Virus record (IMG/VR): IMGVR_UViG_3300023184_000109
Location: 1,826 to 65,825 of that record
Reading direction: 5' to 3' (one strand)
DNA: 64,000 bases
Source of the DNA: a virus
Lineage: Duplodnaviria > Caudoviricetes
Below are positions 25,306 through 49,661 of this stretch, one piece after another; the stretch's first letter is position 1; every line of letters begins with the position of its first letter. A program made the translations under genes and the position numbers. A model generated the notes under the pieces. That model saw nothing but the letters and a program-made list of their open reading frames with translations, was not told the DNA's origin and ran no database searches.

Positions 25306-25953
25306 ATGATTATAGGGGTGTGCGGGTTTATAGGATCAGGCAAAGATACTGTTGCAGACTATCTTGTGAATTTACATCATTTTCGCAGGGAAAGTTTTGC
25401 CAACACATTGAAGGATGCTGTGAGTGCAGTGTTTGGATGGGACAGAACCATGCTGGAAGGGCGCACCAAACAAGCCCGTGAATGGCGCGAACAACAAGAC
25501 AATTGGTGGACCAATCGATTGGGTATGGCAATTACTCCTCGTTGGGTTTTGCAAAACTGGGGCACTGAAGTATGCCGTAACGGATTCCATGATGATATTT
25601 GGATTGCCAGTTTAGAAAACAAACTGCGCAACAGCACAGATGATGTTGTTATCAGTGACTGTAGATTTCCCAATGAGATCAAAGCAATTAAAAATGCCGG
25701 CGGCATTGTGGTGCGTGTGGTGCGTGGTGCTGAACCTGAATGGTACGACGCAGCCAAGAGTCGTAATCGCGGACCAAACGGAAATACCAACTGGGCCTTG
25801 AGTGGACGCCGACTAGAGCAGTTAGGCGTGCATGCGTCAGAAACTGCCTGGGTGGGTACAAAATTTAATACAGTACTAGACAACAACGGCACATTAGATG
25901 ATCTATATCAGCAAATTATGCGTCTGGTTCAAGATCGCCCGCCCGCCAAGTAA
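25306..25953 (+). CDS. Deoxynucleoside monophosphate kinase (T4 gp1-like)
   Basis: P-loop GFIGSGKDT, SFANTLKD, TPRWVLQNWGTE, ISDCRFPNE and HASE motifs. Confidence 0.85.
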   Translation: MIIGVCGFIGSGKDTVADYLVNLHHFRRESFANTLKDAVSAVFGWDRTMLEGRTKQAREWREQQDNWWTNRLGMAITPRWVLQNWGTEVCRNGFHDDIWIASLENKLRNSTDDVVISDCRFPNEIKAIKNAGGIVVRVVRGAEPEWYDAAKSRNRGPNGNTNWALSGRRLEQLGVHASETAWVGTKFNTVLDNNGTLDDLYQQIMRLVQDRPPAK

Positions 25954-26260
25954 CTTCTACTTTTGAAATCTCCTCCACACAGTTACGGCACACTGTGCGC
26001 AGGTTCCTCAAGGCAGTGTTATTAAGATCCCCATCTATATGATATACTAGCAATTGACTGGCAAGTCTTGCCTTGAACCCGCATCTATCACATGCGGGTT
26101 TTTTCTTGTACCCGTCTGATTTCCAACGTGGTTCTCTGGGCTTGATACCACGTCCTCGACGTTGACAAGTTTCACACCTACTGCGGTAATGTGTGACATG
26201 TTCCCGGATATAATTTACGGCACGAGGACGCTGATTGCAGGCTGGACAAATGGGTCTCAT
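25916..26260 (-). CDS. Zn-finger HNH-endonuclease-like protein
   Basis: Four CxxC pairs and YHIDGDLNN...NLRTVCRNC; TAAATA 4 nt upstream. Confidence 0.65.
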   Translation of the reverse strand: MRPICPACNQRPRAVNYIREHVTHYRSRCETCQRRGRGIKPREPRWKSDGYKKKPACDRCGFKARLASQLLVYHIDGDLNNTALRNLRTVCRNCVEEISKVEVTWRAGDLEPDA

Positions 26261-37630: not shown

Positions 37631-38434
37631 ATGAAAAAACTTTTATTTGTGCTGTTGCTCACAGCCTTACAATCAGCACACGCTTGGGACCAAACCGCCC
37701 CTCTAGCAGTTGACCACTGTCGAGCACACAATCCTTATGGTTGGGCCAAGACTGCAAAGTCTGTTACAGCCATCTGTCGTAGAGCATACTTTGTGGCCTA
37801 TGATGCAGCCGCAAAGATTCCCAACTATGTGTCATACACGTTGACTCCGCCCAATGCCTTGGGATGCTGGCCAAGAACCAATGCGTTTGTTGCCGACGCA
37901 AGTGTGCCCAATGGTGCTCGTCCAGATGACTATGCTGGCACAGGCTACGACAAAGGACATGCTGCTCCAGATGGTGACTTATCATGGGACCAACAGGTAG
38001 AATACGAAAGTTTCTTAATGACCAACATGTATCCACAACTGGGTGGACTTAATCGTGGCATTTGGAAACTGCTGGAAACTTCAGTGCGTGGTTGGACGGT
38101 GCAACTCAACAACAGTTTTACAATCTATGTGGGTGGCGTATATGACAACACTGACAAAACAATTGGCAACGGTGTTGTGGTGCCACACGGATTCTACAAG
38201 ATTGTAATCAACAACCAAACAGGTGCCATGGCTGGTTGGTATTTCAAGCACGAAGGCGGTCAGGGCAATGACTTGACCCGGGCCCGTGCTGCTATTTCAG
38301 CCATAGAAAACAAAGCAGGTGTGAAGTTTGCTTTCCCAGCTAACGCTCAAGAGCTCACGCCTGGGCAAGAATGGCCTGTGGACTTTGGCGCACTTACAAA
38401 TGCCAAACGCCAAAAATGCAAGAGCGCCGACTAA
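37631..38434 (+). CDS. DNA/RNA non-specific endonuclease (NucA/EndoG family) with signal peptide
   Basis: GYDKGHAAP, FLMTNMYPQ, LNRGIWKLLE and VPHGFYKI motifs; N-terminal MKKLLFVLLLTALQSAHA. Confidence 0.9.
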   Translation: MKKLLFVLLLTALQSAHAWDQTAPLAVDHCRAHNPYGWAKTAKSVTAICRRAYFVAYDAAAKIPNYVSYTLTPPNALGCWPRTNAFVADASVPNGARPDDYAGTGYDKGHAAPDGDLSWDQQVEYESFLMTNMYPQLGGLNRGIWKLLETSVRGWTVQLNNSFTIYVGGVYDNTDKTIGNGVVVPHGFYKIVINNQTGAMAGWYFKHEGGQGNDLTRARAAISAIENKAGVKFAFPANAQELTPGQEWPVDFGALTNAKRQKCKSAD

Positions 38435-38449
38435 CACCGTAAATACGGC

Positions 38450-39592
38450 ATGAGCAACTTCTATTGTGCAGCCCCCTGGCGTGGGCTGCACATCAATCCC
38501 CGTGGTGATGTCAAAACATGCTGTGCTGGCAACCCCAACATGTTGGGCAACCTCAACAGTCAAAGTATAGAACAAATACTCAACAGCCGACTAATGGCCG
38601 AAATACGCACTGACTTGGCACATGGACAAGCACATAGCTACTGCTCTAACTGTGTACAGGCTGAAAGATTTGGTGCAGACAGTGAACGGCAGTGGCACAA
38701 CAATGTCAACCCTGATTTTGATTATGTCACTGCTGGTGACCAATACCACTATCCGGTTATTGTAGATGTTCGTTGGAACACCACATGCAATTTCAGTTGC
38801 AACTATTGCGATCCCAGTGCCAGTAGTAAATGGGCACAGTTAAAACAAGTACCATTCAAGTCAGGCTCAAGACCCTACTATGAACAAGTATGTGATTTTA
38901 TTGAACAACATTACGAACACATACATGAAGTGGCCTTGGTGGGTGGTGAGCCGTTGTTGCTGCCAGAAAACGAACGACTGCTGGATGTTATACCAGACAC
39001 GGCTATTGTTACGCTGATCACAAACTTGAATGTTGACTTGCAGAGCAATAAGATATTTCGCAAACTTGCACAACGTAAACGGGTGGGATGGAGCATGAGC
39101 TTTGATAACATAGATCAACGTTTTGAATATGTGCGCTATGGCGGATCTTGGACAATGTTACAAGAGAATTTAAAGACCATACAAGGTCTAATGCAGTCAC
39201 AAGGACAATGGGGAGGTGTGCATGCGGTGTACAGCATTTACAATGCCACCAGACTGTGTGAGTTCAGACAGTTTGTTGAATCAGCTGGTGCCACAGTGCT
39301 ATGGCAAAATTTGTTTCAGCCCAAGTACCTTGATCCATTTTTGCATGCGCCTGCTGTGGCTCAATTGGCTGCTGCAGAAATTAGACATTTCTACACACTA
39401 GGTATTGCTACAGACGCAGAACGCCAGTTTTTTGATCAGGCTTTGAGTAAATACAATTCTATTGAGACTGCTCAACCAGACATTGTTGAACAATTCAAAA
39501 AACACATACGTAACATTGAAACACAGTATCATCCCAGCACCGCCGGGCAGTTTCAACAACTATGGCCTGAACTGGCAGAAAGTATAAAATGA
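38450..39592 (+). CDS. Radical SAM protein with N-terminal SPASM/twitch-like Cys cluster
   Basis: CNFSCNYC and GGEPLL; N-terminal CAAPW...KTCC...CSNC. Confidence 0.85.
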   Translation: MSNFYCAAPWRGLHINPRGDVKTCCAGNPNMLGNLNSQSIEQILNSRLMAEIRTDLAHGQAHSYCSNCVQAERFGADSERQWHNNVNPDFDYVTAGDQYHYPVIVDVRWNTTCNFSCNYCDPSASSKWAQLKQVPFKSGSRPYYEQVCDFIEQHYEHIHEVALVGGEPLLLPENERLLDVIPDTAIVTLITNLNVDLQSNKIFRKLAQRKRVGWSMSFDNIDQRFEYVRYGGSWTMLQENLKTIQGLMQSQGQWGGVHAVYSIYNATRLCEFRQFVESAGATVLWQNLFQPKYLDPFLHAPAVAQLAAAEIRHFYTLGIATDAERQFFDQALSKYNSIETAQPDIVEQFKKHIRNIETQYHPSTAGQFQQLWPELAESIK

Positions 39593-41178
39593 TTGCACCC
39601 CCGCCAACTAAGAATTTAGAAACGGTGCTAGTAAAAGCACCACACCGCAAAGAAGTATACACTGAACAAGAACTAATTGAATTTGCAAGATGTGCAGATC
39701 CAGTGACTGGACCACTGTACTTCATGGATAATTTTTTCTACATCCAGCACCCCACACGCGGCAAGATGTTGTATCATCCGTTTGACTACCAAAAGCGATT
39801 GATTGCCACGTATCACGAGTATAGATATTCAATATCGCTAATGCCTCGACAAACAGGCAAGTCGACCAGTGCCGCAGGTTATTTGTTGTGGTATGCCATG
39901 TTTGTTCCTGACAGTACCATTCTAGTGGCCGCACACAAATACACAGGTGCACAGGAGATCATGCAACGTATTAGATACGCATACGAACTGTGCCCTAATC
40001 ATATCAGAGCAGGTGCCACCAGCTACAACAAAAACAGTTTGGAATTTGAAAATGGATCACGTATTGTTGCACAGACCACAACTGAAACCACTGGACGGGG
40101 TATGAGTATTTCACTCCTGTACGCCGACGAATTTGCGTTTGTGCGACCCACCATTGCTCGAGAGTTTTGGACTAGTATCTCGCCCACCCTGGCCACGGGT
40201 GGTAAGGCCATTATCACAAGTACTCCCAACTCAGACGAAGATCAATTTGCGTACCTATGGAAAGGTGCCAACAAGACTCAAGACGAACATGGTAATACCA
40301 CTGAATTAGGCATAAATGGATTCCGCGCATTTAGAAGCAACTGGCGTGAACATCCAGACCGTGATGAAAAGTGGGGACTAGAGCAACTAGCACAACTGGG
40401 CGAAGATCGATTCCGACGTGAAATGGAATGCGAGTTTGTTATCAATGATGAAACACTAATTGCGCCTACCAAACTGCTGGACCTTGAAGGTGTAGAACCC
40501 AATCGCCGTACAGGACAGGTACGCTGGTACAAAACTCCTGTCAAAGATAAGATATATATTGTGGCATTAGACCCTAGCCTGGGCACTGGAGGCGATCCTA
40601 GTGCTATACAAGTGTTTGAAGCAGACACTACAGAGCAAGTGGCTGAGTGGCGTCACAACAAATCAGACATTCCCACACAGGTCAAACTATTGGCTGACAT
40701 TGTCAATGAGTTGTATGAAATTACCAAAGATGATAAAAAGATTTATTACAGTGTAGAAAACAACACCATTGGTGAAGCAGCCTTGATATCCATAAACGAG
40801 TATGGTGAAGAAAACATCCGGGGCTACTTCCTTAGCGATAACTCAGTGACAGGTACCACAGGACGTAGATTCCGCAAAGGATTTAACACCACAAACAAAG
40901 CCAAACTCACAGCTTGCAACAAGTTCAAAATTCTTGTGGAATCTGGGCGCATGAAGCTGTACAGCAGGCCACTAATTTCTGAACTCAAAACTTTTGTTGC
41001 ACACGGGGGCAGCTATGCTGCCAAGCCCGGAGAAACTGATGACCTTGTCATGGGATCACTGTTGGCGGTGCGCATGCTCATGATGTTGCAGACTTATCAT
41101 GCAGAATTAGACACACAAATGAAAGATCACGGCGATAACATCATTGAACCAATGCCGTTCATATCAATGCTGCGCTAA
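39589..41178 (+). CDS. gp17: Terminase large subunit
   Basis: Walker A PRQTGKS, Walker B LLYADEFAF, ITSTPN, and nuclease motifs ALDPS and DDLVM. Confidence 0.95.
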   Translation: MIAPPPTKNLETVLVKAPHRKEVYTEQELIEFARCADPVTGPLYFMDNFFYIQHPTRGKMLYHPFDYQKRLIATYHEYRYSISLMPRQTGKSTSAAGYLLWYAMFVPDSTILVAAHKYTGAQEIMQRIRYAYELCPNHIRAGATSYNKNSLEFENGSRIVAQTTTETTGRGMSISLLYADEFAFVRPTIAREFWTSISPTLATGGKAIITSTPNSDEDQFAYLWKGANKTQDEHGNTTELGINGFRAFRSNWREHPDRDEKWGLEQLAQLGEDRFRREMECEFVINDETLIAPTKLLDLEGVEPNRRTGQVRWYKTPVKDKIYIVALDPSLGTGGDPSAIQVFEADTTEQVAEWRHNKSDIPTQVKLLADIVNELYEITKDDKKIYYSVENNTIGEAALISINEYGEENIRGYFLSDNSVTGTTGRRFRKGFNTTNKAKLTACNKFKILVESGRMKLYSRPLISELKTFVAHGGSYAAKPGETDDLVMGSLLAVRMLMMLQTYHAELDTQMKDHGDNIIEPMPFISMLR

Positions 41179-41188
41179 ATACACGACT

Positions 41189-43972
41189 ATGACAATGGAA
41201 GCATTACCTCAAGATCTAGCAGATTTCTTGGTCACACGCAATTTTGACCCAGAATACTTTGACGACCAAGGCCAACCCACAGAAGCTGGTGACGCCAAGA
41301 CCATGAAATTTGATTATGTTGCCAGCTCTGGCAAAAGTTACGGCACAGCAGTTGTAGTAATTGCTGATGACGAACTCAGTTTGTTTTATGGCGACAACCT
41401 GGGCAGGGGCATGGAACCTGAAGACAAAGAAGATTGGTTCAGTTTCCTAGAACAACTCAGCAACACTGCTGCCAGCCATGGAGCAACTTGGAGTCCACGC
41501 GACATCAATCAACTCAAGCACACACTGGCCGGCATTGCTGCCATCAAAGAAGGCTTGTTTGAAGGCTACTATGGCACTAGAAAAATCAGTTACATGGGTG
41601 AGCAAACTCAAGCACGACTAGTGATCAAACACAATCGTGTGCTGGGCGAAGATGACAAACGTTATCGCTATGTGGAAAGTTTGTTTATTGAAACAGCCGA
41701 GCAAGAACGTTTTAGACTGCCGTTTAAAAGTTTGAGTGCTGGACGAGCCATGCTGGAACATGTGCGTTCAGGTGGCAACCCGTATGATGTGCGTGGCAAT
41801 CACATTACAGAAATTGTCGGAGAAATGGCTGTGTTGAGTCGTTTCAATCGTGCTCAACATCATCGTGTGTTCGAAGGAGTAACACAACAGCTGGTGGAAA
41901 GCGCACGGCAATACTATCACAACCTACAAGAAACCGTCCGGCAGCTTGGCAGCCCACGTGGCTATCAAGCATACTTTGAAAGCTGGGCTCCTGACCAAAC
42001 CGGTCAAGCCGAAGCCCTAGTAGAAAATCTACGCGACCTGTTTGTGGAACAGACCCTGGACGCTAGAATTGAAGCTGCCTTGCCCACATTGGCCAAGATA
42101 CAACAACAAGGAAACAACATGAAAGAAGCTGAAATATTTGAAAACTGGATCAACAATCTCAGTGAAGGCACCTGGGCCCTGCCAGACACACCCGAAACAC
42201 AGGAAAAACTCAACCAGCTGATGAGTGCTGAACTCATAGTTGGCCCTGATGCCACCAATGCCACTGAGTTGTTGTATGACCTAGTGGGTGATGACGAGTT
42301 GTTTGACATCCTAAACGACTTGGCTGACAAGAGTCAAGGCCGTGCCAACATTTGGGACGACTCAGATGTGCAACGCAGACTGGCTGAACTGGGTGTGCAA
42401 ACTCCTCAAAGCACTGCGGCAGAACCTGCTGATGTTGCCCAAGACACAGCACCGCCAATGGCAGAAGACTCGTTGAATGAATTTAGAGCAGATGATTTCG
42501 ACAAAGATGATGATGATGATGACGAGGATGAATTCCCGGAGATGTTTGAAGCGCCATTTACTGCTGTTATTAACGGTAAAAAACAAAATGGCACAGTGAT
42601 AATTTATCCTGGAGAAGTTACCTCGGCAGAATGGCATCTCAAGGACACAATCTATATCAAAACTGGTATGGACAATGTACACGACACAAGTGACTTTATT
42701 ACACATGCGGCAGAATACATTCAAGAAATCATCAAATTGGATGGCCGAGGGCATAATTATGTAAAACATCTGAAAAAGCGTCGAGGTGTGGGGGAAGGCT
42801 CTGGTGACTCACAAATCACACCTGGCATGAAAACTCAATACGGAACTGTGATGTCTGTAGAGGGAAACACTGTCACAGTCAGAGCATCAAACGGTGAATT
42901 GACCACTGTGAACATTCATGATATAGACCAAGGCATGGCAGAAGGCGACAACATGAGTACATTTGTGGAAGATCGTGAATTGGCTGAGATGCTGAAATAT
43001 GCTGGCGTGCCCATCAAAGAAAATGTACTGACAGACTCAACTGGCAGCACACTAGACCACATCTTAGACACATACAAGCGTGATGTCAAGGACTTCACCC
43101 AGTCTGGAGAAATGAGTCGTCATTTGGAGCAAGTATTGTATGATTACTACTATGACGATATGCCATATGGCGCAAAAACTGGCGAAGACATAGATACATC
43201 TGAATGGATCGGCGATCGTTTTGCTCAAGACATTGGTCTTGACGAAGGTTGGAAAGGTGCGTTAACTGGCGCGGCCCTGGGCGGCGCATTAGGTAGCATT
43301 GTGCCCGGACTTGGAACTATTCAAGGTGCCATCGCTGGCGGCTATGCTGGACATAGACTTGGCGATGAAGGACTGGCAGACCCAGATAAAGAATACAATG
43401 CACGCCAGAAACTGCAAACCCAACAGCCCAAACCAGTCAGCGAATGTAACTACACCATGGAAGGTGAGTACTGCCCAGAACACGGTTTGGCTGAATGTGG
43501 TATGGCCGATGGTGGTGCAGTGGGCATGCCTTACAGCATGGGCGAAGAATTAAATGAAATTGGCGACACCCCAGCCGGTCGAGCAGCTTTACAAAGCTAT
43601 CAAGATAAAGCTGGCAATCAAGTAGATAACCATTGGAAACAAGTTCATAATAAGAGTCATTTACCAACAGACCCAAAGATGGCAAAGCGTAATGCAGGTA
43701 CCGTTGCGGCAGGCAATAGAATACACGGTTTCGGTATTGCCAAAAATCAACAAGATAAAGTCACGGGTCGTTTTAATTACCGTGATGCCGTTGGTAAAAC
43801 TCATGTATATCAAAAAAACGATCCATTAGAACAAGGTGTGGCGGAAGGCAACGATGATCCAATCAACTCAAACTCGGCAATGACCGGAAGTTACTATGAA
43901 GGCAAAGAAACCAAGACCCAAGAAGGCGATGCACTTCTGGCAAGAATAAAATCACTGGCTTTGCTCAGATGA
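41189..43972 (+). CDS. Large acidic mosaic protein, putative head/core polyprotein
   Basis: Globular-looking N-terminal part followed by modules ending in (Q/R)G(V/M)(A/G)EG; TAAATA at 41176. Confidence 0.6.
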   Translation: MTMEALPQDLADFLVTRNFDPEYFDDQGQPTEAGDAKTMKFDYVASSGKSYGTAVVVIADDELSLFYGDNLGRGMEPEDKEDWFSFLEQLSNTAASHGATWSPRDINQLKHTLAGIAAIKEGLFEGYYGTRKISYMGEQTQARLVIKHNRVLGEDDKRYRYVESLFIETAEQERFRLPFKSLSAGRAMLEHVRSGGNPYDVRGNHITEIVGEMAVLSRFNRAQHHRVFEGVTQQLVESARQYYHNLQETVRQLGSPRGYQAYFESWAPDQTGQAEALVENLRDLFVEQTLDARIEAALPTLAKIQQQGNNMKEAEIFENWINNLSEGTWALPDTPETQEKLNQLMSAELIVGPDATNATELLYDLVGDDELFDILNDLADKSQGRANIWDDSDVQRRLAELGVQTPQSTAAEPADVAQDTAPPMAEDSLNEFRADDFDKDDDDDDEDEFPEMFEAPFTAVINGKKQNGTVIIYPGEVTSAEWHLKDTIYIKTGMDNVHDTSDFITHAAEYIQEIIKLDGRGHNYVKHLKKRRGVGEGSGDSQITPGMKTQYGTVMSVEGNTVTVRASNGELTTVNIHDIDQGMAEGDNMSTFVEDRELAEMLKYAGVPIKENVLTDSTGSTLDHILDTYKRDVKDFTQSGEMSRHLEQVLYDYYYDDMPYGAKTGEDIDTSEWIGDRFAQDIGLDEGWKGALTGAALGGALGSIVPGLGTIQGAIAGGYAGHRLGDEGLADPDKEYNARQKLQTQQPKPVSECNYTMEGEYCPEHGLAECGMADGGAVGMPYSMGEELNEIGDTPAGRAALQSYQDKAGNQVDNHWKQVHNKSHLPTDPKMAKRNAGTVAAGNRIHGFGIAKNQQDKVTGRFNYRDAVGKTHVYQKNDPLEQGVAEGNDDPINSNSAMTGSYYEGKETKTQEGDALLARIKSLALLR

Positions 43973-44113: not shown

Positions 44114-45109
44114 ATGGCATCATTAGCAGAAATCAGAGCACGACTACAGGCAGCAGAAGGCAACAAAGGCGGAAGCCAAACAGGTGGAGACAATTCAATT
44201 TATCCACACTGGAACATGGAAGAAGGGCAAAGTGCAACACTGCGATTCCTTCCCGACGCAAATACCAAAAACACATTCTTCTGGCAAGAGCGAGCAATGA
44301 TTCGTTTGCCATTCGCTGGTATCCGAGGCGAGATGGATAGCAAACAAGTGTACGTACAAGTACCTTGTATGGAGATTTGGGGCGAAGCCTGTCCCATCTT
44401 GGCAGAAGTACGCACCTGGTTCAAGGACAAGAGCCTTGAAGAAATGGGTCGCAAATACTGGAAGAAACGTTCATACATCTTCCAAGGCTTTGTGCGTGAG
44501 AATCCCATGAACGAAGACAAAACACCCGAAAATCCCATCCGACGTTTCATCATCGGTCCACAGATTTTCACCATCATCAAAGGCGCATTGATGGATCCTG
44601 AACTGGAAGAATTGCCCACAGACATTCTGCGTGGCTTGGACTTCCGTGTCACTAAAACTGCCAAAGGTGGTTTTGCTGACTACAACACTTCAAAGTGGGC
44701 ACGTAAAGAATCGGCACTGACCGAAGCTGAACAAGCCGCAATTGAAGCACATGGTTTGTATGACTTGAGCACATTCCTGCCCAAGAAGCCAGGCGATGTG
44801 GAGCTCAAGGTTATCAAAGAAATGTTTGAAGCAAGCGTGGATGGACAACCTTACGACACAGAACGTTGGGGTCAGTACTTCCGTCCTGCAGGTGTACAAG
44901 CACCTGGTGGCGCTGCTCATGTGGATGAGGACACACCTGCACCAGCAGCCAAGCCTGCACTCAAAGTGGCAGCGCCTACTCCGGCAGCAGACAACGGCTT
45001 TGACGAAGATGACACTCCTACAGCAGCCGCGCCAGTGGCCCGGCCTGCAGAAGGCAGCAAAAATGCCCAGGACATCCTGGCCATGATTCGTAGCCGTCAA
45101 GCCAAGTAA
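44114..45109 (+). CDS. gp32: Single-stranded DNA-binding protein (T4 gp32-like)
   Basis: LRFLPD, PC...CPIL, YWKKRSY, GLDFRV and ADYNTSKW motifs with an acidic Ala/Pro tail; upstream of uvsX. Confidence 0.85.
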   Translation: MASLAEIRARLQAAEGNKGGSQTGGDNSIYPHWNMEEGQSATLRFLPDANTKNTFFWQERAMIRLPFAGIRGEMDSKQVYVQVPCMEIWGEACPILAEVRTWFKDKSLEEMGRKYWKKRSYIFQGFVRENPMNEDKTPENPIRRFIIGPQIFTIIKGALMDPELEELPTDILRGLDFRVTKTAKGGFADYNTSKWARKESALTEAEQAAIEAHGLYDLSTFLPKKPGDVELKVIKEMFEASVDGQPYDTERWGQYFRPAGVQAPGGAAHVDEDTPAPAAKPALKVAAPTPAADNGFDEDDTPTAAAPVARPAEGSKNAQDILAMIRSRQAK

Positions 45110-45168: not shown

Positions 45169-46224
45169 ATGGGAAAACCATTTGACGTAAGCAAGTTCCG
45201 CAAGGACATTACCAAAAGCATCGAAGGCCTCAGCATTGGATTTAATGATCCAACAGATTGGATTAGCACAGGCAACTTTGCCTTGAACTATCTCATCTCA
45301 GGAGATTTCAATCGAGGCATTCCACTGGGCAAGATCACAGTGTTTGCCGGTGAATCTGGTGCAGGCAAGAGTTATATCTGTTCAGGCAACATTGTGAAGA
45401 ATGCACAAGATCAAGGTATTTTTGTTATCTTGGTTGATACAGAAAATGCATTGGATGAGACATGGCTACATGCACTGGGTGTAGACACTGGTGCAGATAA
45501 GTTGCTCAAGCTGAACATGAGCATGATTGATGACGTGGCCAAGGCAATTTCGACATTCATGATTGACTACAAAGCGTTGCCAGACGGCGAGCGCATGAAG
45601 GTGCTATGGGTGATTGACTCATTGGGCATGTTGTTGACACCAACTGATGTAAATCAATTTGAAGCAGGAGACATGAAAGGTGACATGGGTCGCAAGCCCA
45701 AGGCACTCACATCATTGGTGCGTAACTCAGTCAACATGTTTGGTGGTTACAATGTTGGAATGGTCTGTACAAATCATACATACGCAAGTCAAGACATGTT
45801 TGACCCAGATGACAAGATCTCAGGTGGCCAAGGTTTTATCTATGCGTCAAGTATTGTTGTGGCCATGAAGAAAATGAAACTGAAAGAGGACGAGGATGGC
45901 AACAAGATCTCCGAAGTCATGGGCATACGTGCTGGTTGTAAAGTAATGAAAACTCGTTATGCAAAACCATTCGAAGGCATGCAGGTCAAAATTCCCTACG
46001 AAACAGGTATGAATCCCTACAGTGGCCTGACTGATCTTGCAGAGAAAAAAGGCATGCTCAAGAAAGAAGGCAATCGTCTGGTGTTTGTCACCAGCGAAGG
46101 TGAAATAATTAAACAATTCCGCAAGGCCTGGGAAGCAAACGAAGACGGGTGCTTGGACAAAGTCATGACAGATTTTAAGAATATCAAAACAGAGATAAGT
46201 ATCGCTGACCCTACAGAAGAGTAA
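45169..46224 (+). CDS. uvsX: RecA-like recombinase UvsX
   Basis: GESGAGKS, VDTENA, VIDSLG, TNHTY, SGGQG and KTRYAKPF motifs. Confidence 0.93.
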   Translation: MGKPFDVSKFRKDITKSIEGLSIGFNDPTDWISTGNFALNYLISGDFNRGIPLGKITVFAGESGAGKSYICSGNIVKNAQDQGIFVILVDTENALDETWLHALGVDTGADKLLKLNMSMIDDVAKAISTFMIDYKALPDGERMKVLWVIDSLGMLLTPTDVNQFEAGDMKGDMGRKPKALTSLVRNSVNMFGGYNVGMVCTNHTYASQDMFDPDDKISGGQGFIYASSIVVAMKKMKLKEDEDGNKISEVMGIRAGCKVMKTRYAKPFEGMQVKIPYETGMNPYSGLTDLAEKKGMLKKEGNRLVFVTSEGEIIKQFRKAWEANEDGCLDKVMTDFKNIKTEISIADPTEE

Positions 46225-46237
46225 CATGTAGTAACAC

Positions 46238-46750
46238 ATGAATCATTTACGATTTGAATTTTCAGCAACTTATTGTAATGCATGGCCCAAGTTAAGATTT
46301 TATATTGATGGGGATTTGTATCATGATTACCATTTTGAAAAAGAAGTAGGAATAGTCACGTTGCCTGTTGATCTATTAGATGGTTCTCATCAGATAGAAA
46401 TTGAACTATATGATAAAACGGACCATGACACTATAGTGGAAAATGATAAAATCATAAAAGATCAAACAGTAACTCTTAATACCATGTACCTGGATGACGT
46501 ATTGTTGCCTGAATTATTTTTGTACCGCGGTAGGTACGAGCATTCTCCAAATAATATTGCGTTGACCTGGGGAATTCCGGGGAAATGGAGTTTTAATTTT
46601 GATACACCCATTGTGACCTGGGCACTACAAATTAAACATATGAATCAAGTTGATGCAGACACCACCATGGTGTCTACGTTCTCATTTCAAAAAAATAAAA
46701 AATTATTAAATCTGTTGGATTTGTTGGAGCAAGAATTACTAGATGTCTAA
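46238..46750 (+). CDS. Hypothetical protein in an AT-rich insert
   Basis: 170 aa ORF overlapping the B12 radical SAM gene. Confidence 0.6.
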   Translation: MNHLRFEFSATYCNAWPKLRFYIDGDLYHDYHFEKEVGIVTLPVDLLDGSHQIEIELYDKTDHDTIVENDKIIKDQTVTLNTMYLDDVLLPELFLYRGRYEHSPNNIALTWGIPGKWSFNFDTPIVTWALQIKHMNQVDADTTMVSTFSFQKNKKLLNLLDLLEQELLDV

Positions 46751-48233
46751 ATTCACGCAAGCAGTTATAATTTCTACTGGACAAGTTGAAATTAACAGGC
46801 CGCCTCCAGGTCTGGGATTTCTTGCAGGTATATGTGATAGTAGTGATTTGCCTTATGAAGCATTTGATTTAAATGCTTTTGTTCTTGAGCAAGTGGGAAA
46901 TGATAAATGGATTGAACTGTATCATTACACATCATTAAATGACATTGAAGATGCTGGTTTATTAAACCAGATTGATCACATACTAGATTTGTTTGTCACA
47001 GGTATCAAAACAATAAATCCTGATCTAGTGTTGATAACAGTTTTAACTCATTGGCAAAAGTTTTGGTGTGAAAAATTATTAAAAAAAATAAAAGTATTTG
47101 ACATTAATGCAACTGTTGTGGCTGGCGGCCCGGGTATATCAGTGTATCACACTGCCACTAGTACATTTGGAAAATATCTGTGCAATCATGATTTATTAGA
47201 CTACTATGTGCTTGGAGAAGGTGAGGTAGTGTTAACTAATTTTTTAAAAGGTCAATATGATCTAGGAGTAAATTCCAAGACTGATCTTGTTGAAACTTGG
47301 GCAATGCAAATAGATAACTTAGATACAAATCCGCTGCCCTCATATAAAAAGATCGATGTTAATTATTACAAATCATCTCTGGGGACTGGAACTATTTCAA
47401 TAACTGGCAGTAGAGGCTGTGTTCGTCGTTGTACTTTCTGTGATGTGGGCAATATTTGGAAAAAATTTAGATTTAGAAGTGCAAGCAACATTGTAAAAGA
47501 AATAGAAAAACATTATTTAGAAACTGGACATACTGATTTTGCATTCACTGACAGTTTAATAAACGGGTCTTTAAAAAATTTCATTGGGTTCATGGAAGAA
47601 TTAATTGAGTTACAACAGACACATCCGGATCTAAAAAACATCACGTATCTTGGACAATTTATAATTAGGCCACGGGCACAGCACCCTGAATATATGTTTC
47701 AATTGATGAAACAAAGTGGATTCAGCAATGTCATAGTTGGAATAGAAACTGGCAGTGACACTGTAAGATTCCACATGAAAAAAAAGTTCACTAATGAAGA
47801 TATTGATTACCATTTAGAAATGTGCGAGAAATACAAATTAGGAAACACATTTCTTTTCATGGTAGGATATCCTACAGAAACGTTGCAAGATTTTGATGAT
47901 ACATTAAATATGGTGCGCAAATATCAAAAATATTTGTTGAGTGGGACTTTGATAGATGTTGGTGAAGCGTTACCAGTTACACTTTTGAAAAATACACCGT
48001 TGCATTCGTTGGCAGGAGAACTAGGGATTGACACAAACGATGAGTATCATAATATTTATTGGTTGTCTAAAGAAAATCCTGACCTAACTCTTAAAGAGAG
48101 ATGGCGAAGGTATATTACGTTTCAAAGAGAGTTAATTTTGTTAGGCTATCCTAGATCAGGTGATTTAGAAGTAATGCTGGCACAACATCTTACCAAGATT
48201 AAAAATTTTAAGGATTTAAATTATGTCAACTAA
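46743..48233 (+). CDS. Cobalamin-binding radical SAM enzyme (class B methyltransferase-like)
   Basis: PPPGLGFLAG, VAGGPG, GEGE, SRGCVRRCTFC, GIETGS and VGYPTET motifs. Confidence 0.85.
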   Translation: MSKFTQAVIISTGQVEINRPPPGLGFLAGICDSSDLPYEAFDLNAFVLEQVGNDKWIELYHYTSLNDIEDAGLLNQIDHILDLFVTGIKTINPDLVLITVLTHWQKFWCEKLLKKIKVFDINATVVAGGPGISVYHTATSTFGKYLCNHDLLDYYVLGEGEVVLTNFLKGQYDLGVNSKTDLVETWAMQIDNLDTNPLPSYKKIDVNYYKSSLGTGTISITGSRGCVRRCTFCDVGNIWKKFRFRSASNIVKEIEKHYLETGHTDFAFTDSLINGSLKNFIGFMEELIELQQTHPDLKNITYLGQFIIRPRAQHPEYMFQLMKQSGFSNVIVGIETGSDTVRFHMKKKFTNEDIDYHLEMCEKYKLGNTFLFMVGYPTETLQDFDDTLNMVRKYQKYLLSGTLIDVGEALPVTLLKNTPLHSLAGELGIDTNDEYHNIYWLSKENPDLTLKERWRRYITFQRELILLGYPRSGDLEVMLAQHLTKIKNFKDLNYVN

Positions 48234-48486
48234 TGTTGCAAGTGAAATTTGGGGCGAACTAAAAAGATACGTCAATGTGGTAGATCGTATAGATGCAGCC
48301 GAAAGCATTGTGTCTATCCTGATTGATCACGATCATGATGTTGAAGAAATTCGAAACGCCTTCAAAGGTGATTCAGACATCAAGAAAGCCCTGACTGCAT
48401 ACCTGGACAATGACAAGGATTATGCAGAAGAGGACGAGGAAGAGCCAGACGAAGAAGATAACTATAATCAAGAAGATGATTATTGA
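48223..48486 (+). CDS. Small acidic protein in the uvsX-uvsY region
   Basis: 87 aa, SD AAGGA, acidic tail. Confidence 0.65.
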   Translation: MSTNVASEIWGELKRYVNVVDRIDAAESIVSILIDHDHDVEEIRNAFKGDSDIKKALTAYLDNDKDYAEEDEEEPDEEDNYNQEDDY

Positions 48487-49661
48487 TGGAAAGAAATTAC
48501 TATTGCCGGCAAAAATTTCGAGCGTTGGCAATTGACCCAGAGAAAAAAACCACGTATAATTGCTATACTGCACAGTCACAACCAATAAACTTTGAGTGGT
48601 TAAAACAAAATCCTGGGCAACTGTTCAATACTGATATCAATGTCAGTGAACGTGAAATGATGTTGAATAACACACGCAACCCCAGTTGTGAACAAAGTTG
48701 TTGGGTACCCGAAGATCAAGGTATGATCAGCACAAGAATAATTGATGTTGGCAATGTAAAAACTCATGCAAATCCACGCGGCACAGTTGAAACTTTGAAT
48801 TTTGTAACTGGTAGTAATTGTAATCTAACATGCTCTTATTGTTGTAAAGAATTTAGCACTGCTTGGAGTAACGATTGTGAAAAAAATGGTGAATATCAGG
48901 ACCTGGGCAAAGATGCTGAAAGATATCAGTATTCTAAAATTGATCAGATATTAAAAAAAGTTTCTCAAGCTAAAAAGTTCAATATGTCACACTACCAAAT
49001 GTTACTGGATGAAGTGTCGCTATGCGCTGACAATTTGTCATCGTTCGGAATCAGTGGTGGGGAACCGTTGTTGCACAATCGCTTTTTAGATATTCTACAA
49101 TTAACACAACATGTACCACAAATAAAAATATACACAGGTCTAGGGGTCAACATCAAAAGATTTGAAACACTACTGGACAAAATTAAAGACTACAAAAACA
49201 TTGTGGTTGCTGTGAGCATGGAGAATGTTGGTGCATTACATGAGTTTAATAGGTACGGCACCAAATGGACGGACGTGGTAACAAAACTTGATTTGCTAAA
49301 GCAAAGCAACGTCAACACAATATTTTCTTCGACACTGAGTAATCTGAGTATTTTTGGATTTGCAGAGTTTTACAATCAATTTAAATCTTATCACATAAGG
49401 TCAGACGTGGTTCATACACCTTCGTTCATGCCACTGTACGTTATTGATGACGCCAGCAAACAATGCATAGCCAATGAACTTGCCAACACCAACTTAGACT
49501 CACGTGATGACATTATAAAAAGCCTCAGCACTGTGCCCAGTCGCGAACAACGGGTGCAATTACAAAATTTTTTACGGCAATTTATTGCCCGACGATCTGA
49601 TTTAAGTATAGATGTATTTCCAAAATCTTTTCAAACCTGGGTAACTGAAAATGTGGTATAG
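48486..49661 (+). CDS. Radical SAM protein with N-terminal Cys cluster (paralog of 38450)
   Basis: CNLTCSYC, SGGEPLL and EFNRYGTKW motifs. Confidence 0.85.
   Translation: MERNYYCRQKFRALAIDPEKKTTYNCYTAQSQPINFEWLKQNPGQLFNTDINVSEREMMLNNTRNPSCEQSCWVPEDQGMISTRIIDVGNVKTHANPRGTVETLNFVTGSNCNLTCSYCCKEFSTAWSNDCEKNGEYQDLGKDAERYQYSKIDQILKKVSQAKKFNMSHYQMLLDEVSLCADNLSSFGISGGEPLLHNRFLDILQLTQHVPQIKIYTGLGVNIKRFETLLDKIKDYKNIVVAVSMENVGALHEFNRYGTKWTDVVTKLDLLKQSNVNTIFSSTLSNLSIFGFAEFYNQFKSYHIRSDVVHTPSFMPLYVIDDASKQCIANELANTNLDSRDDIIKSLSTVPSREQRVQLQNFLRQFIARRSDLSIDVFPKSFQTWVTENVV

Follow-up and report, generated by a model that had tools for sequence, protein, structure and literature searches.

The window analysed here (the whole stretch of 64,000 nt, positions 1,826 to 65,825 of IMG/VR record IMGVR_UViG_3300023184_000109) comes from an uncultured, freshwater, T4-related jumbo myophage. 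One of its genes, P0002, encodes in a single open reading frame (ORF) of 927 aa a homologue of virion proteins whose C-terminal half is an array of small modules. Among relatives of the gene, the modules come in different sets and orders; the same modules are found in genes that are otherwise unrelated, having passed laterally between them; and the short junction at which modules meet is conserved as DNA as well as peptide across unrelated genes. With moderate confidence, we read the product as a virion protein carrying a shuffled chain of modules, where each junction would act both as a protease site and as a joint in the DNA.

The array gene and its modules

The gene is divided below into its parts. 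In junction peptides, an arrow marks the module boundary, and pLDDT (predicted local distance difference test) is the confidence score of the structural models.

41189..43972, + strand: whole gene, P0002, 927 aa; virion-protein homologue with a modular C-terminal half
41189..42457, + strand: N-domain, aa 1-423; mixed alpha/beta, 86-95% identical in close relatives
42458..42469, + strand: junction J1, ATGGCAGAAGAC (M-A-E↓D); relatives' homology ends at 42444-42470; linker with pLDDT<50
42467..42796, + strand: module A, aa 427-536; acidic run and small folded beta/alpha domain, AT-rich
42782..42799, + strand: junction J2, CGAGGTGTGGGGGAAGGC (R-G-V-G-E↓G); pLDDT<50 at model residues 123-129
42797..42943, + strand: module B, aa 537-585; small beta-barrel, pLDDT 80-93
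42929..42946, + strand: junction J3, CAAGGCATGGCAGAAGGC (Q-G-M-A-E↓G); core homology begins at 42925-42936, and contigs of run X4 are joined at 42929-42941
42944..43546, + strand: conserved core, aa 586-786; helical domain, glycine zipper, knuckle and mini-module
43538..43549, + strand: junction J4, ATGGGCGAAGAA (M-G-E↓E); 69 blastp high-scoring segment pairs (HSPs) end at aa 786, and blastn matches end at 43547
43547..43846, + strand: module C, aa 787-886; AT-rich, with a near-identical copy in the L100 ORF
43832..43849, + strand: junction J5, CAAGGTGTGGCGGAAGGC (Q-G-V-A-E↓G), the consensus 18-mer
43847..43969, + strand: conserved tail, ending in an amphipathic helix (...EGDALLARIKSLALLR)

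An earlier reading of the bare sequence (the original prediction) had proposed an in-frame array bounded by five short strings beginning at 42458, 42782, 42929, 43538 and 43832. All five begin where it placed them and lie inside the ORF (an alternative start, TTG at 41144, lies upstream). Modules A, B and C and the core all terminate in [VM]-[AG]-E. Modules A and C do begin alike (TTGAATGAA at 42473 and TTAAATGAA at 43550) and are AT-rich, as had been noticed. Their total GC (0.398 for A and 0.413 for C, versus 0.484 for the N-domain and 0.494 for the core) is merely about 1-1.5 standard deviations under the window mean, and GC at third codon positions (GC3) is the clearer signal: 0.352 and 0.26, versus 0.445 and 0.448. 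The direct repeat of 10 nt formed by the start of J1 and 42935-42944 is exact as well: ATGGCAGAAG has two matches (42458 and 42935) against a chance mean of 0.19, and 1 of 100 shuffles reached two. The longer string GGYRTGGSRGAAGGC matches three times in the window (42785, 42932 and 43835) and in none of 100 shuffles. Translated in all six frames, the complete contig (65,825 nt) has the pattern G[VMLI][AGS]EG three times, always within the array ORF.

The modules are predicted to fold on their own. In the structural model for the C-terminal half, modules A and B come out as separate confident domains, as do the helices of the core (pLDDT 80-95; module A is folded at aa 453-527, pLDDT 84-93), module C and the glycine zipper have a low-confidence fold, and all five junctions fall in stretches of pLDDT<50. 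VIA-align gave Z scores of 4-5.2, to be taken as leads only, that liken module B to Tudor/KOW/SH3 folds and module A to Elf1 or KTSC. The N-domain, modelled with AlphaFold (AF2) at pLDDT 87.7, had no match in PDB (best Foldseek E 0.056) and no usable match in the ESM Atlas; a wide VIA-align search reached Z 6.6 at best, with short helical or KA1-like pieces.

Within the core lie the glycine zipper (about 43256-43366), a knuckle of the form C-x8-C-x2-H-x4-C (43445-43498) and a 13-aa mini-module, DGGAVGMPYSMGE (43508-43546). A glycine zipper after GLDEG had been predicted, and PF13488 does match there, but below threshold (21 bits versus a cut-off of 25). Over 40 nt (43508-43547), the DNA of the mini-module is 95-98% identical to that of relatives whose identity is otherwise about 85%, and it behaves as a mini-cassette of 13 aa, bounded by M-Y-E and M-G-E, that some relatives have and others lack. 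At the other end of the gene, a helix similar to the C-terminal one is found in most of 149 distant representatives and could serve as a peptide for targeting or docking. Over its coding sequence, the final 49 nt (43924-43972), summed contig depth was several-fold above that of the rest of the gene in all four runs considered.

Shuffling of modules among relatives

The array protein has at least 1642 relatives in a large protein collection. An exhaustive HMMER search with the N-domain gave 1695 clusters (50% identity) at E<=0.001. The N-domain is always N-terminal, and proteins among the best 150 are up to 1442 aa long. In the best 120 relatives, identity is 86-95% over the first 45% or so of the protein, but total lengths span 646 to 1088 aa. 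The glycine-zipper region also matches stretches of PHROG tail-lysin and tape-measure families; a tape-measure reading is ruled out by this spread of lengths among near-identical N-domains.

When 269 relatives were compared with four module queries, nine arrangements emerged (the remaining proteins matched none of the queries). The core stands without A, B or C in 123 proteins, B-core is found in 15, A-core and C-core in 4 each, and A-B-core in 2; the arrangement in the window, A-B-core-C, was seen once, as were C-A-core, B-A-core and core-B. Module C, last in the window, precedes the core in P0008, P0040, P0060 and P0132, and module B may lie before the core, after it or before module A. The gene is thus a true in-frame cassette array whose modules are exchanged, and the possibility that orthologues share a fixed module set, which would have told against such an array, is contradicted by the differences in both set and order.

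The places where similarity breaks off coincide with the motifs. Protein alignments end in clusters at aa 422-447, 575-597, 786 (the 69 HSP ends) and 879-888, and DNA alignments at 42444-42470, 42925-42936, 43547 and 43844-43856. Contigs assembled from four metagenome runs (X1-X4; lake or freshwater) tell the same story. Several from X4 jump from 42447-42454 to 42929-42941, omitting modules A and B, and one jumps from 43831 back to 42929, putting module C immediately before the core. Contigs of X1 and X3 jump from about 43501-43547 to 43844-43918. These contigs represent related strains and do not amount to evidence of circles. Assembly chimeras at the repeat are an unlikely source of the joints, since assemblers' usual final k-mers are longer than the repeat; identical architectures also recur in separate metagenomes (L001, L002 and L003).

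The same modules in unrelated genes

Searched alone in viral contigs, modules A and C turned up within ORFs that have no N-domain, as would be expected if modules pass between different genes. The host ORFs are 924 aa (L100), 684 aa (L104 and L105) and 1190 aa (L106) long, and in each the module is bracketed by junctions of the GVAE↓G type. Module C is 93.8% identical in nucleotides to the L100 copy over 292 nt, and module A is 89-91% identical to the copies in L104, L106 and L108 (L105 also has it); orthologous N-domains, by comparison, are 83-87% identical. The cross-gene homology of both modules stops within the junction motifs. The GC3 of the L100 ORF (0.239) is close to that of module C and unlike that of the window gene (0.445), which points to a fairly recent import from a more AT-rich phage. 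Module C was probably acquired laterally, to judge from these features of its sequence.

Pfam, run on ten related mosaic ORFs, gave DUF6321 alone, in two of the ten, and no peptidase; PHROG matches were confined to short stretches of families of unknown function. In one mosaic ORF (L149:5795-8269, - strand), modules of 40-50 aa match small hypothetical proteins at 60-81% identity (tblastn) from cyanophages, pelagiphages, roseophages and a Limnohabitans phage, indicating a module pool common to small stand-alone genes of other aquatic phages.

Conservation of the junction as DNA

The exact J5 18-mer, CAAGGTGTGGCGGAAGGC, is present in at least 120 stretches of IMG/VR viral contigs, compared with 10 stretches for a synonymous control 18-mer (built with the commonest Val and Ala codons) and none for the reversed string. 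Codon usage alone predicts the synonymous form to be about 5 times more common than the consensus. The junction, then, is conserved as DNA and not only as peptide. Boundary codons that vary freely at synonymous sites would have spoken against the original prediction, and across unrelated genes the data contradict this.

Eighty of the loci (L113-L192) were examined. They hold 101 copies of the 18-mer; 100 of these are translated as QGVAEG within ORFs that have 100 aa or more, and the remaining copy lies in a truncated end piece. The 80 junction ORFs of this length represent 74 architectures, yet 70 of the 80 ORFs are joined in one network by local similarity (shared modules). The signatures of the N-domain were found by pattern in just 3 of 81 ORFs with the 18-mer, and a fourth joins through N-terminal clustering. 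Flanks of the 18-mer are unrelated, save for a preferred RAG before it and T after it. The same ORFs contain 92 further junctions, where GGT is used in 83 of 92 (background 0.44), GTG in 70 of 79 with Val (0.24), GCG in 73 of 92 (0.105) and GAA in 83 of 92 (0.80, no excess); that these junctions come from ORFs chosen for one exact 18-mer tells against reading too much into their uniformity.

A sample based on the gene family and unselected by the 18-mer gives 37 unique junction contexts behind 24 upstream module classes. The codons are GGY in 37 of 37, GTR in 19 of 19, GCR in 35 of 37, GAA in 37 of 37 and GGY in 36 of 37, that is, they differ by transitions only, and GCG occurs 19 times against a background of 4-7%.

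In 596 Gb of prokaryote genomes, the 18-mer was found in 56 stretches, mostly as single hits in GC-rich actinomycetes and xanthomonads, although a few probable phage contigs within metagenome-assembled genomes (MAGs) are among them. One, L288, from a MAG labelled Bacteroidetes, is 8,950 nt long and contains the exact 18-mer three times in a stretch of 900 nt; it probably belongs to a phage and was binned with a bacterium.

The junction peptide

Among 138 representatives (50% clustering), the 5-mers met most often in the variable part are QGVAE (46 copies in 30 proteins) and GVAEG (50 in 29), which outnumber every motif of the conserved core. Some proteins have up to five copies, and the logo is (E/K/Q)-Q-G-V-A-E↓G-(S/D). 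So that the motif would not define itself, junctions were located from the downstream module alone. In the 71 unique contexts leading into the core, Glu occupies P1 (the residue before the boundary) in all 71 and Ala occupies P2 in 56; P3 has Met 35 times and Val 34 times, and P4 varies (G 33, P 13, D 11, A 6). The junction into module B has Glu at P1 and Val or Met at P3 in 14 of 14. Even the degenerate junctions at the second insertion site keep hydrophobic-x-Glu (MGE, MYE, IGE, LGE, LSE and VDE).

Such sites fit the hydrophobic-x-Glu rule of T4-type prohead proteases. In T4, gp21 cleaves after L/I-X-E, and internal proteins lose a 10-residue capsid targeting sequence (CTS) after ...F-I-A-E; the CTS has been proposed as a general loader of varied proteins into the capsid (PMC9026906; 10.1101/2021.01.19.427310). 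The proteases of SPN3US and phiKZ likewise cut after Glu behind a short motif (PMC10052503). A related contig of 212 kb encodes a T4-type major capsid protein (MCP) of the Gp23 family (E 2e-97), the first 42 residues of which hold LLE↓G, ILE↓N and LKE↓N. Peptidase_S77 was found in three of five near-complete genomes that bear junctions, and also in phages BF and PA5oct.

CTS-like leaders open many of the related mosaic ORFs, in some cases directly before a junction: MRATEFIIEGVAE↓G, MRINEILVEQGVAE↓G and MKTLRDYINLIESNEQGVAE↓. The leader pattern M-[KR]-x-x-[EDN]-[FIL]-[ILV]-x-E is found in 25 of 52 complete mosaic ORFs, compared with 118 of 596 neighbouring ORFs (Fisher p 1.4e-5). Two ORFs may serve as examples.

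L132:9275-10063, - strand: leader-bearing mosaic ORF with four junctions in 263 aa
L192:5147-5671, - strand: leader-bearing mosaic ORF

The window protein has no short N-terminal CTS; its start, MTMEALPQDL..., runs into the folded domain of 423 aa. Its modules A and C open with LNEF and LNEI just past a junction, resembling CTS-like leaders. This hints that arrays may have grown by fusion of once-separate genes, each bearing a CTS.

Proposed mechanism and its alternatives

On this reading, the protein joins a constant N-domain of 423 aa to an in-frame series of small modules, which vary and fold independently of one another, and closes with a constant C-terminal helix. Each module ends in (E/K/Q)-Q-G-(V/M)-A-E, followed by G, a putative prohead protease site with a hydrophobic P3 and Glu at P1. 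The precursor would be built into the prohead and cut there into separate small proteins that are retained in the capsid, and the freed modules would probably be ejected with the DNA, like T4 internal proteins joined head to tail. We infer cleavage of this kind by a T4-type prohead protease, the location of the array protein in the virion and delivery to the host from the fit to hydrophobic-x-Glu, the disordered linkers, the CTS-like leaders and the detection of distant homologues by mass spectrometry (see below). In the DNA, the core GGT GTG GCG GAA GGC would be a shared in-frame joint. An exchange between two copies of the junction would keep the reading frame and regenerate the site, and cassettes could thereby be lost, change order or pass to other phages and other genes. 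The exchange would most likely proceed through the general recombination machinery of the phage during co-infection (UvsX and UvsY are both encoded in the window), whether at the short junction or in longer conserved flanks, with selection retaining products that are in frame and cleavable. The consensus DNA might then be maintained because each successful exchange copies a junction.

Several observations count against this reading, in whole or in part. The constraint on codons beyond the peptide is evident across unrelated genes, in the 18-mer and in codon counts; in the close N-domain family, synonymous positions show no greater conservation in the motif than in adjoining codons of the core, and ordinary homologous exchange in longer flanks could there explain swaps of whole inserts. 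The pattern of GGT before Val and GGC before Met is partly a general codon-context bias, Gly before Val being GGT in 53% of cases genome-wide. P3 is V/M here rather than the L/I of T4. The strict motif occurs in 1-5 copies at 1-3 loci per near-complete genome and would therefore not be the protease's general site, its uniformity owing more to copying than to specificity. Of the 80 loci with the 18-mer, 34 are near a gene for T4-type DNA polymerase and 28 near one for the phrog_3636 DNA-binding protein, not near head genes; a neighbourhood of replication genes is evidently one place where mosaic ORFs recur. In two of the five near-complete genomes, one of them rated 99% complete, the search for Peptidase_S77 came up empty. 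The protease family (PF03420) was likewise unmatched in the window contig (about 19% complete) and in three partial relatives, an uninformative result given that these records are fragments and that control genomes were unmatched too. The homologues from cultured phages (Serratia phage BF and PA5oct) are 429 and 496 aa long and have an N-domain but neither array nor motif, nor anything else.

A bolder form of the proposal, possible but less likely than not, is that freshwater jumbo phages practise a natural, intron-free 'exon-shuffling': the sequence RAG CAA GGT GTG GCG GAA GGC T, of roughly 18-23 nt, would be kept as DNA for its role as recombination signal, would allow any small domain to enter any capsid-targeted precursor in frame, and would also encode the protease site that frees the domain in the capsid. 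A population-wide combinatorial library of injected proteins would result, possibly with help from a nuclease or recombinase. A rival explanation has a dedicated DNA enzyme encoded elsewhere in the genome, such as a site-specific recombinase or homing-type nuclease, recognize the junction and so capture and move cassettes, the peptide being tolerated or co-opted. We consider this unlikely, even though a core of 14-23 nt, a typical length for the sites of such enzymes, is kept with its rare codons across unrelated flanks, the codon ahead of it (RAG) and the base behind it (T) share in the conservation, and a homing-endonuclease PHROG lies near the junction in 7 of the 80 loci. That association is weak, the junctions have neither an inverted repeat nor an attC-like structure, and Glu at P1 and V/M at P3 persist despite drift of the DNA (MGE, MYE, LGE, IGE) and in relatives only 45-60% identical, which argues for selection on the peptide. 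The contig is of no help to such an enzyme either. The original prediction saw no dedicated recombinase, and this was borne out: the 65.8-kb contig has no match to tyrosine (PF00589) or serine (PF00239) recombinases, which were matched in 14 and 12 control genomes, respectively, or to a GIY-YIG enzyme, although with about 19% of the genome at hand their absence from the phage cannot be concluded. The nearest thing is a sub-threshold HNH match 15 kb away (25916-26260, - strand; 18.5 bits versus a cut-off of 21.4); the small ORF concerned, which separates the genes for dNMP kinase and tail sheath, may encode a homing endonuclease.

It is also conceivable, if improbable, that the motif is an uncleaved linker between the domains of a beads-on-a-string structural protein (a fibre, decoration or inner-capsid tether) that grew by ordinary domain accretion. 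The predicted disorder at the junctions would suit a linker, and the strict motif is absent from the MCP. However, an invariant Glu (71 of 71) with V/M at a fixed spacing is rare for passive linkers, a motif directly behind a CTS-like leader of 10-20 aa fits a processing site and not a linker, and the L132 ORF packs its four junctions into very little protein. Selection on mRNA or translation seems less plausible still: rare GTG and GCG codons, or the G-rich GGAAGG, might slow ribosomes and so aid co-translational folding. It would account for the preference for the rarest Ala codon and a minor Val codon at junctions that always lie between folded modules, but it leaves unexplained why cross-gene homology ends at junctions, and single-codon usage of 79-89% is far beyond the known effects of pausing. 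Two further candidates were set aside. Internal starts at the GTG or ATG of the motif are unlikely, as GTA is found in 7 of 19 Val junctions and AAGG lies merely 1 nt before the codon, and a Chi-like hotspot would have no reason to be in frame.

Comparison with known systems

The reading of the junction as protease site and DNA joint brings together features known from separate systems. The internal proteins of T4 (IPI-III and Alt) are prohead-targeted cargo, cut by gp21 after hydrophobic-x-Glu, retained and ejected, and their set varies between phages (PMC9026906). The CTS-like leaders of the mosaic ORFs are a further likeness. In T4, however, each cargo has its own gene and one N-terminal CTS, whereas here many cargos share a single frame, and a motif of the cleavage type follows every one of them; the window gene also differs in having its N-domain in place of a short leader and V/M in place of L/I at P3. 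In phiKZ-like giant phages, a different lineage, abundant head-internal proteins such as SPN3US gp53 and gp54 are cut several times after Glu by a gp21-related protease, whose motif is A-X-E with Val preferred at P4 (PMC10052503). According to the available part of the same source, those cuts degrade propeptides and release no variable series of folded modules, and cassette shuffling at cut sites is not reported (PMC10052503).

Polyvalent proteins (Iyer et al. 2017) resemble the array in being multi-domain, variable and predicted to be packaged, injected and processed into units, but they carry recognizable enzymatic domains and an embedded MPTase-type peptidase (PMC5512222). The array protein lacks these hallmarks, Pfam giving only the sub-threshold glycine zipper, and a junction uniform in DNA is not among the features that the available text ascribes to polyvalent proteins. 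In the adhesin gp38 of T-even phages, short conserved glycine-rich motifs delimit interchangeable hypervariable segments within one ORF, but those motifs form a fixed structural core with strict synteny, and their deletion is lethal (PMC3157838); here, the number, order and host gene of cassettes vary, and the motif resembles a processing site. PeSL cassettes of T4-type phages offer short conserved DNA motifs proposed to mediate modular shuffling, but they are intergenic promoter/terminator units that move whole genes (PMC2839356), while the present junction is coding and in frame.

The original prediction called the array integron-like, which holds as an analogy and no further. Integrons too are arrays of exchangeable cassettes with a recurrent boundary, but they need the tyrosine recombinase IntI and structured attC sites, and their cassettes are separate ORFs. 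No IntI was found in the contig, and the boundaries are 14-23 nt of coding sequence in one continuous frame, with no inverted-repeat structure. No description of such an array turned up in the literature searched, supplements excepted, and the papers matched there by QGVAEG, GVAEG or QGMAEG are, to judge by title, not on phages. The array thus appears to be an undescribed variant that joins capsid-targeted, protease-processed cargo with motif-mediated shuffling of modules. Among the systems compared, as the available portions of the sources describe them, none unites a variable in-frame array with a junction uniform in both DNA and peptide across dozens of architectures.

If the proposal is true, then one short sequence would be both the joint for exchange of modules and the site of their later release, and giant phages could reassort the small proteins they carry into the cell (for host take-over or counter-defence) with reading frames intact. 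The idea of the T4 CTS would extend from single genes to fused, shuffled arrays, hundreds of small domains, almost none recognized by Pfam, would be flagged as candidate injected effectors, and phage capsids loaded with several cargos could be designed by a rule taken from nature. Whatever the mechanism, the conservation at the level of DNA of a coding junction over at least 74 protein architectures needs explaining.

Position of the gene and its neighbours

The source contig (65,825 nt, viral) is rated about 19% complete. Metagenome runs with the array stretch are labelled lake, freshwater or river, and there are bioreactor and salt-marsh rows as well. The array ORF lies downstream of the gene for the large terminase (39589-41178) and upstream of those for a gp32-type single-stranded DNA-binding protein (SSB; 44114-45109) and UvsX (45169-46224); elsewhere in the window are genes for tail sheath, tail tube and neck proteins, for large virion proteins and for several radical-SAM enzymes.

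The N-domain matches phrog_13484, 'virion structural protein' (E 1.2e-8), and tblastn relates it, at 24-33% identity, to 23 records of jumbo phages, including PA5oct, Serratia BF, Erwinia, E. coli A4 and Vibrio 2.275.O phages. Serratia phage BF (gp274) and PA5oct (gp278) share the order TerL, homologue, SSB, UvsX. By homology of the N-domain and position after TerL, the array protein belongs with the phrog_13484 family. The BF homologue is annotated as a virion structural protein and that of PA5oct with 'ESI-MS/MS', and it is from such distant homologues, detected by mass spectrometry, that the product of the array gene is taken to be a probable virion protein.

Three genes of the radical-SAM type flank the terminase and recombination genes (38450-39592, 46743-48233 and 48486-49661), and of these one has a SPASM domain and another binds B12 through a dedicated domain, to judge by their matches. 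Two genes upstream of the terminase, 37631-38434 encodes a DNA/RNA non-specific endonuclease (PF01223, E 1.3e-38).

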